Positions 22,595 to 42,522 of a stretch of 42,522 nucleotides of DNA are shown piece after piece. Within the stretch, counting starts at the first letter, position 1. Each line of letters begins with the position of its first letter. The DNA is taken from assembly GCA_001724265.1 (NCBI GenBank), contig MEDY01000367.1, forward strand, positions 1-42,522, in the 5' to 3' direction. The translations under genes were made by a program, and so were the position numbers. A model generated the notes under the pieces. That model saw only the letters and a list, made by a program, of their open reading frames with translations. It was not told the origin of the DNA and made no database searches. This DNA is from Rhizaria sp. SCN 62-66 (Eukaryota).

Positions 22595-25500
22595 TTACTG
22601 CTGTTGGTGCTGCTGCTTGAGTCGCTGCTGTCTCTGCAACTTCTGCAACCTGGAGAGATTCGCGACGGATAGCGACACAGAAAAATCGCTCTCACTGGCC
22701 GTCCCTGTTCCTGCGGCTGCCGAGACGTCGTTCGAGGTCACAGAGACTGCAGACGCGGACGTGCCTGGTGACACGTGCGACGCGTGTGCGCTCACACGGA
22801 CGCCGAAGCCGCTCACAGTCACATGGCTGGAGCCCCGCAGCCCGCTAGAGACTATAGGCACTGTAGACTCAGCGGGCGAGGATACCATGTCCGTACCTGT
22901 GTCCGCACTGTGCTGGCCAGTTGCATAGTCAGTGGCCAGGCCTGGAGCCACATTCACGGTCAAGAACTTCGGTAAAACCGAGAAATTCTGCGGCGATGCT
23001 CCGATCGCAATGGTGTTAGCGTTTACGGAGGCCAACACAGTGGAAGAAGGCTCGGGACCGGAGCTAGAGTGAGAGCCGGATCCAGATTGAGGACTCACAG
23101 TGTAGCTGTTGCTGCTGCTTCCATTACCAACGATGTCATGATGACTGTTTGTGTTGTGATCAATGCCACGAGGCCGCGCTGAAGGACTGTCTCCAAGAAC
23201 CTCCGACACCGCCGCATTCGCGGGCGCAGGTCCGCTGCGGTGCTGCTGATAAAAATGCTGTTGCTGCGCGGCCACGTCGTTGTTGTTGTCCGAAGCAACG
23301 TTGTTAGCACGGTTTTTAGCGGCGGAGGAAGACGTCGAGTCGGAGTTGACGCCGCCGCTACCGTCGGCGCGGCGCCAGTGGCGGTGTTGATCCTCGTACG
23401 ACACGTGCGTGGCAGCTGCAGTGTTGACGCTGTCGCCGGAGCCGCCGCCGCTGTCGCTACTGCCGAGACCGGGGGAGTCGAACTGGTCAGCGTCGACGGC
23501 GACAACAACAGCCGACTTACCTGTTGGGCTCTCTGTATCATTGCCTGGCACCTACTGCGACGCAGCAGGCGGGCGCACAGCATCGTGACCAGCTTTGTAT
23601 CCCTCGCTCTTGTGCTGTGCAGTTGCGGCCTCAGCGGCGAGCAGAGCGGCGCGGACCTCAGCGTCGGTGTGCGGCTGCATCGCCTCGCGCTCACGCTCGC
23701 TGTCAGCGATGTGCACGGTGTGCTGAGCGGGGTACGCTGCGTCGCATTGGCGCTGCTTCTGCTGTTGCTGTAACGCGTGGACGTTGACAGGGCTGTAGGA
23801 AATGTGCTGGCCGTTGTCGTCGCCGCCCGCACTGTGCGGGGACACATCGATCACAGTCGCAACAAACCCCTGGGACCGAAACTGAGACTGCACTTGCGTC
23901 TGTGGCTGCGACTGGGCCTGCGCCGTTGCCTGCGGTTGCCGCGGTGGGTGAACAGGTGCATCGCTAGACTTAGTCGCCACAGTGGCAGTAGCAGCCTCTT
24001 CCTCCTGCCCGGTCTCCTGCAAAGTCGCCAACGGAGAGGTGTTAAACGCCGAGCGGCTGCGGCTACGACTGCGAGGTGAGAGAGGGTTTTGTGAGAACAT
24101 CGCAGACATACCAGCGATCGGGGCAGTTATCTGTGGCGGTGGTTGCTGTGGGAGCTGTTGCTGAAGTTGTTGGTCGTCAGTAGGAGCAGCGTATCCGTCA
24201 GCATTGACTCCGTTCCCGTTGCCAATGCTAGCCTTGCCATTGCCCTCGTCGGTTTGTTGGCGCAAGAGCACTTCAATGAGCTGAAGCCGGAGCTGTTGCT
24301 GCTGCTCTTGCTCCTTGTCCTGTGCTTGCTCAGGCACTTGCTTTTGCTGCGGCTGCTCTTGTTGCTGCTGTGGCTGCTGCAGCTGCTGCTGCTCTTGCTG
24401 CTCTTGCTGGGGCAGTGGAGTACTGACGGACTGGTGTTGCTGCACAACAGCCTGTGGATACACGCGCACGTACGACCCCGTCAGGTTCGTGAACGCGCTC
24501 CCGTCACTGTTAAGGCGCCCGGGAGCACTCAGAACGCTGTTGCCAGAGCCGGGAACGTGACCGCTGAGCGCGCCGCTGACGCAGCTCAAGTTGTTCGTGC
24601 TGGGCAGCCCTCCAGAGAGTGAAACGTGGTCCTTATGGCTATCGTGCATGAACGGCGCGAGGTCTTCCAACAGCCGTGTTGTGCTGTCCTTTTGCTGTTG
24701 TTGCAGTTCCTGCTCCTGCTTTTGTTGCGCAATATGCTGCTGCATGTACTGCGCCAAGAGCGCGTTGTAGTGGGCGTAGTACTGCTGCAGCTGCTGCTCC
24801 GTCGGCGGGCCGCTGCTGCTGTCCATGAACATCGTCAACGGCGGCGGCGGTGGCGGGGGCGACGTGTGGTCACCCATTATGCCACTGCTGCTGTACGAAC
24901 CAGAGCCGTTGTTAGCAGTCGTAGTCACACTGGCAGTACCACTATTACGGGACATTGGCCGCGGCAGCTGCTGGTGCTGAAGCTGTTGCTGTTGGTGAGT
25001 GCTGGACATCGCACCGGAGCCGGGGCCCAGTGCCTCCGTGCGCGGACCGGGGCTTCCGCGACGCGACCCGTTACCCACACTCTTCTGCGCTGCGGTGCCG
25101 TTGTTGTTGCTGTTGAAGTTGTTGTTCTGCGTCGCATTGGGGCCGTACTGGCCGTTGTCATTGGAGGATCCGCCGTTCGGGTAACCGTTGTTGATAGGAA
25201 GAGCATTGAACGGGCCGCGGCCGTAATCATTGTTGTTGCCGTCACCGTTGCCGTTACCGTTCATGTCGCCGTTGGAGACGTTAGCAGGTCCGTACGCGCC
25301 GTTAGTGCCGCCGTGAGCGGGCCTGCCCTTGAGACTCCCACGCGGGCCTCCAGGGGGCATGTGCTGCATCGCATGCAGCCCCGGCGTCAACGGGCCCTCG
25401 AGGTCGTCGAGGTCGAGTCCAGAAAAAGTCAGCAGCGGCACAGGAGCAAGCACGGGCGGAGCTTGAGCGACGCGCGCTGTCGCCTGCAAGAGCTGCAGCG

Positions 25501-40500: not shown

Positions 40501-42522
40501 GCGCCAGAGTCTGGATCGCGCAAGCGCCAGACGCCGATGCGCACAGTCGAGTTAGTGGAACAACTTTCCTCAATACACTCGTAGGTGCGCGAACTGTCGT
40601 TCACCGCGTCAAATGGAACTGCGCCGGCAGTGGCGAGACACGAGATTGTGACTGCGGTCGCAATCGCGAAAGACCCGCCCAGAGCAGCAGGCGATGAGTA
40701 CGCGAGTTGGACACCCGCATTCGCAAGCGAAGTCTGCGTCGCGTTAGCGCCAAGGAGACGCACGGCGGAGTGACACATGGGAGTCGTTGTGCACACTGGC
40801 GCAGAGCCAGACCAGGTACCAGTGCTCATACAGCGCCGGGATAGCGTGCCCGCAATCAGATGCGTGTACTCATTGCACTCGTACGTGATGACGGAGTCGG
40901 CAAGCGGGTATGAGGCCGTATTCGTGTCGCCGTTGTGCGCAGAGAGTGTGAACGCAGCGTTCTCCACGGCGTTTGGCAGCTCGCATGCAGCGAACGCCGC
41001 AGTCGCGACAGGAACGCAAAGTCCAAGCACAAACCCGGCGTTGGCACTCTGCCACTCAGCAACGACGCCCCTCTGCACGCAAGTCCAGCTGATCTCGTCG
41101 TGCTCGCGGCCCAGCGCGCGCGCGGCGTCCTCGCGGCACTGCGCGCGCAGCACAGTGCCCAGCGGCAATCCCGTGGAGGAAGCCACCAGCATGGGGTTCG
41201 ACCACCCGCCAAGCGCGACTTGACTCACGACAGCGGTGACATAGGTGGAGCCATTAAATGAGGGCTGCAGTGGGCATTCAGCGCGAACGCAAGAAAAGCC
41301 GCTCACGCCGTCAGTGTTCGTCCACTGAGGCGCTGCAGTGTGCGTCGCCGCAGCGCGGGTCTGGCACGTCGCGCGCAGCTCCGCGCCGCCTGCAGGCACG
41401 TAGCCCGCGGCGCAAGAGTAGCTCGCGCGCGCGCCCAGAGGGTACGTCTTGGCGGAGTTGACTGTGGCGCTGACTGCAGCAGGCAGCTCAAGCATGTCTG
41501 CTCTGACGACGATCGCGCTGTCAGTCGAAGTCGGGAGCGGAGGCGCACCGCAGCCGGTGTAGACGGCAGGCGGCGCGGTGCCGCAGGTTGGGAATACACC
41601 GGTCCACGAACCGGATGGCGAGCAGTAGACGGTGTTGGCGCGGAAACTGAGAGGATCATCCACGCCGTCAGCCGACGTATTCGCGAGCGCAGAGAACGAA
41701 CGCATGCGCAACATCTTTCGACTGATGGGTGAGATGCTCTCCAAGGCAGAGTCAGCTGCAATTTCAGGCAGGTTAGCAAGAGCATTAGCAGAAGCAGCAC
41801 ATGCGAGAGTTGCAGCGGAACCAACAAGAGGATACGTGTGCGCAGCAACCTTCATTGGCGTCGACGTGATGAGATTAGCCAAGTCAGATCCCATGTGCAG
41901 ACACGCCGCTTCAAGCGTGGACGTCTGACAACGGAACTCCGATGCTGACAGCGGGATGCCGCCAAAGCCCGTCGCAAGGGCAGTGGCGGAGTCACTCACA
42001 ATTGAGAGCAGAGTCGAGTTAGTCCAGACAGCGCCAGCAAAGCCAGCGTCTGCGGCTTCACAGCGCATCCACAGTGAGCGCGGCGAGCGCGAACTGGGGT
42101 GCGTTCCAGACACGCAGCCAATCACAATCGCGCTGCCGACCGTGACAGTGTCGCGGAACATGGTCGGCGCACTGGTCCAAGGCCGCGCAAACGTGCCGTT
42201 GATGGTCGTGATCGTCATGTTCGTCGGGAGGTCCGGGCGTGCACACTGCAGATCAAGGCACAGCGGCAGCGCGGTGATGTTGTACTTCCACAGCCGCGTC
42301 TGTGATTCGCACTCAACGCGAACCCAGTCGAGGTCCGAGGGCCGCGACGGGTTGCGGCAGCGCACGTAGACCGACTGGCCGGGCGTGCCGGTAACCGCGC
42401 TGGCGGGCTTCATGGTCGAGTCGGAGTACGTCACGTTAGAAACAGGCGTAGCGAGCAACACGGCATGGTGCGCAGACATTATCGTGCTGAGCGCGGGACA
42501 GCGCGGCGCGACACAGCTGAAC
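22595..42522 (-). CDS. Giant Sushi/CCP-repeat + REJ + GPS + 5-TM polycystin-1 (PKD1/REJ)-like protein, 5'-partial, ~6,640 codons in window; four in-frame TAG (38403-5, 32109-11, 26819-21, 23552-4) and a 1-nt frameshift at ~30340
   Basis: Consecutive ORFs are in the same frame across each TAG. Domain order is coherent across the breaks: Sushi array, REJ-like (ALFIPPFTLPPGVSYRFRLCV, TSDPD..LLYSWSC, LVINATALSPDTVYTFRV, LPLSYRW), GPS (WDTSSC...CACTRL), TM1, the PKD1-like H..YSLWRRTPVSRITFTRR motif, then TM2-5. The frame is open to the window edge. The first non-TAG stop is TAA at 22595. Confidence 0.8.
28043..28111 (-). repeat. (CAG)23 coding microsatellite, poly-Gln
   Basis: Perfect CTG run on the + strand. 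Confidence 0.95.
30252..30413 (-). repeat. (CAA)~53 coding microsatellite (poly-Gln) containing one extra base
   Basis: TTG run on the + strand with a single TTT at 30338-30340 that shifts the register from poly-Q to poly-T. Confidence 0.95.
31528..31613 (-). other. GPS (GAIN-domain) motif preceding TM1
   Basis: WDTSSCTVAKRVSATRTVCACTRLGLHAV, followed ~30 aa later by the hydrophobic helix IAPVIIIGALALICLLAVILAGA. Confidence 0.75.
33900..36520 (-). other. REJ-like extracellular region
   Basis: Motifs resembling REJ modules (YxW, L.IP..TL.PG..Y.F.L.V, SDPD..L.YSWSC, G.C.V.P, PLSY.W). Boundaries approximate. Confidence 0.7.
36540..42522 (-). other. Array of ~19 Sushi/CCP (SCR)-like modules
   Basis: Recurrent C-P..G..(Y/F)xC..G(Y/F)..C..GxW..PxC, e.g. 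ITYECNEY..RRCMSTGTWSGSAPVC, LSCPPGY..ECAVNSRWYGTAPVC, ATYECQSD..RYCQADGTWSPDVLEC. Count made by eye. Confidence 0.85.

Follow-up and report, generated by a model that had tools for sequence, protein, structure and literature searches.

In-frame UAG codons in a giant REJ/GPS gene of a GC-rich wastewater eukaryote: possible decoding of UAG as a rare sense codon

UAG reassignment in nuclear genomes and the locus compared

Changes of the nuclear genetic code that affect UAG alone are, to our knowledge, restricted to a few lineages, and all the described cases that we know of are mature, with the codon found in most genes. Here, we analyze a contig attributed to Rhizaria sp. SCN 62-66 (MEDY01000367.1; the whole stretch of 42,522 nucleotides [nt] is hereafter called the window), in which a giant minus-strand gene coding for REJ and GPS domains is interrupted by four in-frame TAG codons, and we weigh the reading that UAG may be decoded in this organism as a rare sense codon. 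Full-text literature searching (supplements being outside the search) found no papers on such an organism.

UAG stands for either Leu or Gln in phyllopharyngean ciliates, in which 78 to 91% of the genes hold an internal UAG, and the codon makes up 6.5 to 32% of its synonymous set; UAA is favored for termination, genes for suppressor tRNAs were identified, and some of the cases come from metagenome-assembled genomes (PMC11687900). In the rhizarian exLh, UAG is read as Leu, with 384 in-frame UAG codons in 71 genes, many of them at conserved Leu positions, while in Iotanema spirale it is read as Gln (PMC5304391). exLh and I. spirale have three things in common with the window: in-frame stops that are exclusively UAG, the retention of UAA and UGA as terminators, and a tRNA(CUA) as the predicted mechanism. 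Unlike exLh as described there, the window has only four such codons, all in one of its four genes and away from conserved positions, and the stop found in a relative is TGA.

Two other kinds of system are similar in part. Blastocrithidia, Condylostoma, and Amoebophrya reportedly have context-dependent or all-stop reassignment, with abundant in-frame stops. By analogy, the likeness would lie in more than one stop type being in frame (TAG here and TGA in the relative), with termination at gene ends; however, here there is less than one in-frame stop per 1,500 codons and one type per species. Programmed readthrough, found in viral and animal genes, likewise involves a stop beyond which conserved coding sequence goes on in frame, and the resemblance is that two species have a stop at a comparable location but of different types. 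What sets this locus apart is that four stops follow one another in a single gene and that no known stimulatory context or structure accompanies them.

Four in-frame TAG codons in a giant REJ/GPS gene

The four TAGs are genuine and lie in coding-type exonic sequence, and we assign a probability of roughly 0.45 to the reading of UAG as a rare sense codon in this organism. The open reading frame (ORF) map and the sequence itself agreed with the initial annotation on the position and peptide context of each TAG, on the terminators of the four genes (TAA for CK2-alpha, TGA for a membrane protein, TAA for an ABC transporter of the ABCC type, and TAA for the giant gene) (Table 1), and on the absence of TAA or TGA within exons; the in-frame TGA at 18432-18434 falls inside the AT-rich GT..AG intron 18384-18506 of the ABCC gene.

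The cross-assembly comparison covered positions 30600-42522, so that independent support extends to the two 5' TAGs (38403 and 32109). Both are reproduced in the X3 contigs, from a different study, which are identical to the window (0 differences) over 31166-33219 (record 9) and 36766-38527 (record 14). The divergent strain X4 (record 21) has 21 differences in 5.4 kb (ca. 0.4%), all of them listed and none on 38403-38405, and hence it keeps this TAG; another X4 contig (record 17) spans TAG 32109 with seven differences, whose positions are outside those listed. Heterozygous nonsense alleles were considered and rejected, as the X3 and X4 contigs pass the TAGs unbroken and with no alternative letter. 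Among the ORFs derived from ENA, P0009 begins immediately past TAG 38403, and both P0004 and P0009 terminate exactly at TAG 32109 (..EALTDA); these two database ORFs and P0003 may share raw data with the window.

Codon bias was expressed as a log-odds score trained on the ABCC and CK2 genes and applied to 30 codons on each side of the TAGs. The values before and after the stop were 0.66 and 0.37 for TAG 32109, 0.92 and 0.39 for TAG 26819, and 0.20 and 0.54 for TAG 23552, with negative values off frame; codon bias near TAG 38403 is generally weak. For the giant gene, the coding log-odds were 0.42 and 0.51 in frame and negative off frame, and its last piece, beyond TAG 23552, scored 0.50 in frame. 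The TAGs all lie outside the AT-rich stretches of the gene, and no plausible GT..AG intron that would remove a TAG was found across the four sites.

Past TAG 38403, the giant gene is under purifying selection. The comparison between the window and strain X4 is based on the 40 of 56 differences that are listed, and the expected synonymous share was taken from 20,000 simulated sets in which the same base changes were placed at random. Synonymous changes accounted for 27 of the 40 (with 4, 9, and 27 differences at the first, second, and third codon positions), against an expected share of 0.31, and 0 of the 20,000 sets reached the observed count. Downstream of TAG 38403, 16 of 21 listed differences were synonymous (expected share, 0.33; p=3.5e-5), and upstream 11 of 19 (expected share, 0.29; p=0.007). 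As TAG 38403 is common to the two strains, the constraint operated on a gene that already had it, which means that ribosomes must pass the TAGs. A dead pseudogene, which the initial annotation had named as a way in which its reading could fail, is therefore unlikely. The gene is probably also transcribed, since contigs of a polyA RNA library with the variants of strain X4 map to the segment before the two 5' TAGs, to the one separating them, and to the one after them, although DNA carry-over in such a library is possible. Among the contigs of the RNA libraries X6 and X10 (the latter probably DNA), none covers 38403-38405 or 32109-32111, and no GT..AG joint was reported within the region compared (30600-42522).

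The initial annotation also had the same frame continuing past all four stops, which was wrong. The frame switches near 30340, where a CAA run has an extra A (Table 1), leaving the two 5' TAGs in one frame and the two 3' TAGs in another, and the phase of the GC content at third codon positions (GC3) flips near 30400. The repeat amounts to ca. 55 CAA codons, that is, polyglutamine, while the old frame gives a false polythreonine and an Arg-rich tail ending at TGA 29682. P0003, an ORF of the same organism, ends inside the CAA repeat with a different sequence; as the repeat is resolved differently between assemblies, and so is poorly assembled, the frameshift is probably an assembly fault. The motif YYAEQVAF and transmembrane (TM) segments of the second frame follow REJ, GPS, and TM in the single polypeptide P0007, and this weak match (E=0.006) weakly suggests that both frames form one gene. 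The possibility of two separate genes at the frame switch was rejected, weakly, on this same match.

The part of the gene contained in the window starts at a residue that aligns to residue 1397 of the ortholog P0006. In order, it codes for Sushi repeats (Pfam, 2.8e-26), a REJ domain whose Atlas neighbors are REJ clusters, a GPS motif that is also kept in the ortholog (locus L001; see below), a TM helix, and a long low-complexity tail rich in Q, A, S, and N with more hydrophobic or TM segments. Judged by this sequence of domains, the product is predicted to be a surface receptor of the REJ/GPS type, not a demonstrated polycystin-1. With polycystin-1 and PKDREJ-type receptors it has in common the succession of REJ, GPS, and TM and a large repeat-rich ectodomain, but it differs from them in its Sushi-like ectodomain modules and its low-complexity tail, and no PLAT or PKD-type channel domain was detected, with no Pfam family in the three pieces of the tail. 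The module that holds TAG 38403 is called Sushi-like from its conserved Cys/Trp pattern, as the Pfam Sushi model does not reach it; a structure model of this module had a mean predicted local distance difference test score of 31.4 and was discarded.

Some peculiarities of composition and assembly were also found along the gene. In a region of ca. 2 kb (36600-38620, minus strand), with TAG 38403 at its edge, GC3 is markedly lower (ca. 0.5) and codon bias is weak, though the region is open in frame; short AT-richer patches appear within it at 36611-36740, 37139-37202, 37354-37415, 37790-37895, and 38086-38199. Contigs from the X3 and X4 DNA runs join over 202 bases (34160-34363) and 132 bases (34464-34597), with short sides (30 to 41 letters) and ends other than GT..AG. 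Repeats within the REJ region may account for these joints, as may a length variant or sequence from another organism.

If UAG is indeed decoded, the four TAGs would be genomic codons in the exons of a functional REJ/GPS receptor gene that ribosomes pass efficiently. Decoding would have to be efficient because hardly any full-length product would result if ribosomes met four leaky stops one after another. A suppressor-type tRNA(CUA) would insert an amino acid at UAG, and/or an eRF1 that recognizes UAG poorly would let it pass, making UAG a rare sense or dual-meaning codon, while UAA and UGA would terminate. We infer the decoding by a tRNA, its genome-wide scope, and its specificity for UAG.

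A TGA in the ortholog and the competing explanations

An exhaustive profile search gave five matches, among them three relatives: P0005 (67% identity), P0006 (37%), and P0007 (27%). Searches for relatives spanning TAG 32109 (lengths of 220 to 700; shorter proteins) recovered only pieces of the organism itself, a scan of metagenome contigs gave the single locus L001, and scans of genome contigs gave nothing related or only bacterial kinases at 22 to 28% identity. P0006 is collinear with the giant gene, with 37% identity over 3060 amino acids, and its DNA is L001 (65.6% GC). In this locus, an ORF of 5,004 codons ends between REJ and GPS at a TGA (15082-15084, plus strand), beyond which the frame remains open for 576 codons, as far as the contig reaches. 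This continuation is 37% identical to the giant gene after TAG 32109 (E=1e-52), GPS and TM included, and the P0006 ORF ending at this TGA is recorded on two contigs.

The two 5' TAGs are both in variable segments. TAG 38403 lies opposite an Ala of L001, with no gap, inside a conserved C..C..C..W..C framework, and TAG 32109 lies opposite Ile or is unaligned; thus, no alignment indicates Gln, the residue that the initial annotation had preferred. In P0007, a more distant relative, a single ORF runs unbroken through REJ and GPS. In P0005, the ORF of 1313 amino acids starts and ends where the giant gene is continuous, even though its contigs reach 81 kb, which suggests interruptions (stops, frameshifts, or introns) at other positions in that species.

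Several of the results weigh against a reassignment of UAG alone. TAG-bearing genes are one of the four, with 0 TAG in the ca. 5,900 codons of the CK2, membrane protein, and ABCC genes (P=0.077 for all four TAGs landing in the giant gene by chance), and UAG at conserved positions pointing to one residue in many genes was not found within this one window. The codon is still avoided, with four TAGs in the 6,585 codons of the giant gene in frame compared with 50 in ca. 13,166 triplets off frame, and in the ca. 12,500 codons of the window in-frame TAG is roughly 12-fold rarer than off-frame TAG. If read as Gln or Leu, it would make up ca. 1% of the codons for that residue, a use that separates the window from the phyllopharyngean ciliates, as does the lack of a tRNA gene: ARAGORN found none in the window, which also gave no Rfam matches and holds no eRF1 gene. 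That all the in-frame stops are TAG had been offered as evidence, but it is not beyond chance, as 59% of the one-step nonsense paths from the codons of the giant gene lead to TAG (64% if transitions are weighted fourfold), and the probability of four TAGs out of four is 0.12 to 0.16 under a random-nonsense model. The window terminators (three TAA, one TGA, and no TAG; n=4) carry no statistical weight.

The ortholog adds to these points. L001 has one in-frame TGA, with 0 TAG and 0 TAA, in 5,581 codons, and an in-frame TGA in the ortholog is not predicted by a change of UAG only. The distance to the conserved block IGLVLFRTSDVTRWPLWMR downstream is 13 codons for this TGA and 11 codons for TAG 32109. 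However, MAFFT sets ..ALTDA-TAG opposite ..TLTQA-Ile of L001 and places the TGA further upstream, and because the correspondence depends on the alignment, the "same place" means within ca. 2 to 20 codons of a variable linker. The probability of such closeness by chance is ca. 0.003 to 0.024 depending on the tolerance, and the stop types of the two species (four TAGs and one TGA) cannot be told apart (Fisher p=0.2). What stands of the claim that UAG is a rare sense codon is that the TAGs are real and exonic, with selection acting past TAG 38403; a genome-wide change of UAG only is not supported by one gene in four. Such a UAG-specific reassignment is plausible but unproven, and the UAG-only reading may be too narrow. 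Neither TAA nor TGA is found in the 6,585 codons of the giant gene, and TGA is missing from all 12,500 in-frame codons although it is the commonest stop off frame (252/387).

This last figure is also a difficulty for the main rival, an unlikely one in our view, which is that in this gene any in-frame stop is passed whatever its type, with TAG remaining a stop elsewhere. The readthrough could be generally leaky, position-dependent, or programmed, and in an attractive variant the stop in the REJ-GPS linker gives a secreted ectodomain and its readthrough the membrane-anchored form. The TGA of L001 near the place of TAG 32109, with its 576 homologous codons beyond, speaks for such a mechanism, and the pooled stops (four TAG, one TGA, and no TAA) fit a mutational input of 57 to 59% TAG, 19 to 22% TGA, and 21 to 22% TAA. 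In-frame stops are rare in both species, all of them in variable loops, linkers, or the low-complexity tail, and the P0005 ORF is bounded on both sides. Yet the bases that follow the stops (G, C, G, and G in the window and G in L001) form no known leaky context, the lack of a CARYYA motif after the TAGs being a point on which the initial annotation was right, and the 120 nt past each of the five stops have no stable structure (z from -1.28 to +0.77). Four serial leaky stops would nearly abolish the full-length product, whereas the constraint past TAG 38403 is at least as strong as upstream. As for the stop at a like position in both species that programmed readthrough would give, TAG 32109 resembles this by its distance to the conserved block, subject to the alignment dependence noted above, but TAG 38403 is a sense codon (Ala) in L001. 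A broader proposal, doubtful and rather improbable as it stands, is that a clade of uncultured GC-rich wastewater eukaryotes is at an early, ambiguous stage of stop reassignment, at which functional genes tolerate rare in-frame UAG here and UGA in the relative although termination still takes place at these codons, or at any rate at UAA and UGA. If so, the clade would offer a natural example of an ambiguous intermediate in a lineage other than ciliates and trypanosomatids, and the stop in the REJ-GPS linker may perhaps be exploited for secreted and membrane-anchored forms of the receptor.

The remaining explanations do away with the stops in the mRNA or with the function of the gene. A-to-I editing corrects premature stops in some filamentous fungi, with UAG as the preferred triplet, and inosine read as G would turn both UAG and the UGA of the relative into UGG (Trp); one mechanism would thus cover the stops of the two species, each a single G-to-A step from TGG. 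We consider it very unlikely, given that relatives have Ala and Ile, instead of Trp, at the aligned sites, that no double-stranded structure surrounds the sites, and that an A following G, as in the UGA of the relative, is a disfavored editing context. Decay of the gene, in which the TAGs and the frameshift would be disabling and the excess of TAG would come from the common codons CAG, GAG, TCG, AAG, and TAC, is consistent with the random-nonsense probability given above, with the presence of one frameshift, and with the large mutational target that giant genes offer. It becomes highly improbable in view of the synonymous excess past TAG 38403, which arose with the TAG already in place, of the intact codon bias in all pieces, and of the absence of TAA and TGA; moreover, the frameshift sits in a repeat that assemblies resolve differently, and RNA-library contigs cover parts of the gene. 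Scarcely credible, finally, is the removal of the TAGs by cryptic in-frame introns or alternative splicing, with TAG serving as the 3' splice site. The sole GT..TAG candidate with a length multiple of three, in phase 0, runs from 32273 to TAG 32109 (165 nt), is within the size range of the real introns, and has the donor GTGAGC, which also overlaps the TGA of the relative. However, this segment is coding-like (0.64 in frame; GC3, 0.70), unlike the four true introns, with 29 to 43% GC and no frame preference. In-frame GT..TAG candidates at the other three TAGs measure 27 to 84 nt or would delete a conserved Cys, and no intron with a length multiple of three can be drawn from the GTGAGC of the relative.

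Neighboring genes, host community, and implications

The sequence of the host was recovered from bioreactor, wastewater, and activated-sludge metagenomes, and 11 of the 13 runs listed, from seven studies, carry at least part of the giant gene. Window exons have 60 to 74% GC, and the introns are AT-rich, with GT..AG ends and 123 to 249 nt; such a GC-rich genome, with introns of this size and multi-gene contigs, is unlike what is known of ciliates. Three plus-strand genes (CK2-alpha, the membrane protein, and the ABC transporter) converge on the giant minus-strand gene, with an AT-rich intergenic gap at 20972-22563. Neither the CK2-alpha nor the ABCC gene has an in-frame TAG.

For the CK2 exon, identity is 86% with one environmental relative and 62 to 72% with sequences of all supergroups alike, among them those of green algae, chytrids, basidiomycetes, a euglenid, an amoebozoan, a chrysophyte, and a cercozoan (Guttulinopsis). 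That environmental CK2 (P0011) is a single ORF of 354 amino acids spanning the positions of both window introns (874-1105 and 1859-2001), so either its source is without these two introns or the record is a transcript. In the ABC transporter gene, low-complexity inserts between the ABC_membrane and ABC_tran domains inflate the length to ca. 4,600 codons, and its two introns split the transmembrane domains TMD1 and TMD2.

Table 1. Coordinates of the features found in the window
Feature	Position	Strand	Details
TAG no. 1	38403..38405	-	Context GITYA*DLSAHH; in a module framed by Cys residues (C..C..C..W..C) that the ortholog shares
TAG no. 2	32109..32111	-	Context ALTDA*LAALG; REJ-GPS linker, 11 codons before the conserved block IGLLMFKTADPTQWPLWMR
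TAG no. 3	26819..26821	-	Context VDKDI*EQLAQ; second frame, cytoplasmic or multi-TM tail
TAG no. 4	23552..23554	-	Context PAASQ*VPGND; 318 codons before the TAA terminator
Giant gene, ca. 6,585 codons in the window	22595..42521	-	5'-incomplete at the window end; ORF map, Pfam, collinear ortholog
REJ domain	34368..35129	-	Pfam PF02010, E=3.2e-11; residues 1092-1345 of the piece starting at 38402
GPS motif, TM helix after it	31530..31619	-	Pfam PF01825, 20.7 bits in one run and 22.9 bits against a cut-off of 22.5 in another
(CAA)n repeat with one extra A	30250..30412	-	..CAACAAACAACAA.., near 30340; shifts the reading frame
TAA terminator of the giant gene	22595-22597	-	AT-rich convergent intergenic region beyond
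CK2-alpha gene	760..2259	+	Three exons, introns 874-1105 and 1859-2001; TAA stop 2257-2259; Pkinase 3.4e-50, CK2 homologs
Membrane-protein gene		+	Intron 2852-3100, placed by eye; TGA stop 5853-5855
Giant ABC transporter (ABCC) gene, ca. 4,600 codons	6749..20870	+	Introns 8789-8978 and 18384-18506; TAA stop 20868-20870

Gene callers split genes of this kind at their stops, as happened with the database ORFs P0003, P0004, P0009, and P0006. Were UAG indeed a rare sense codon in this organism, this would be an independent lineage with such decoding in a GC-rich genome, and a code change of a known kind would gain a new lineage. Its use at ca. 1%, together with the strong avoidance that remains, could then show the first steps of reassignment, the stage perhaps being an unusually early one. 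Should in-frame stops of any type be tolerated instead, as the TGA of the relative would indicate, termination would be unusually permissive in an unstudied group of eukaryotes.

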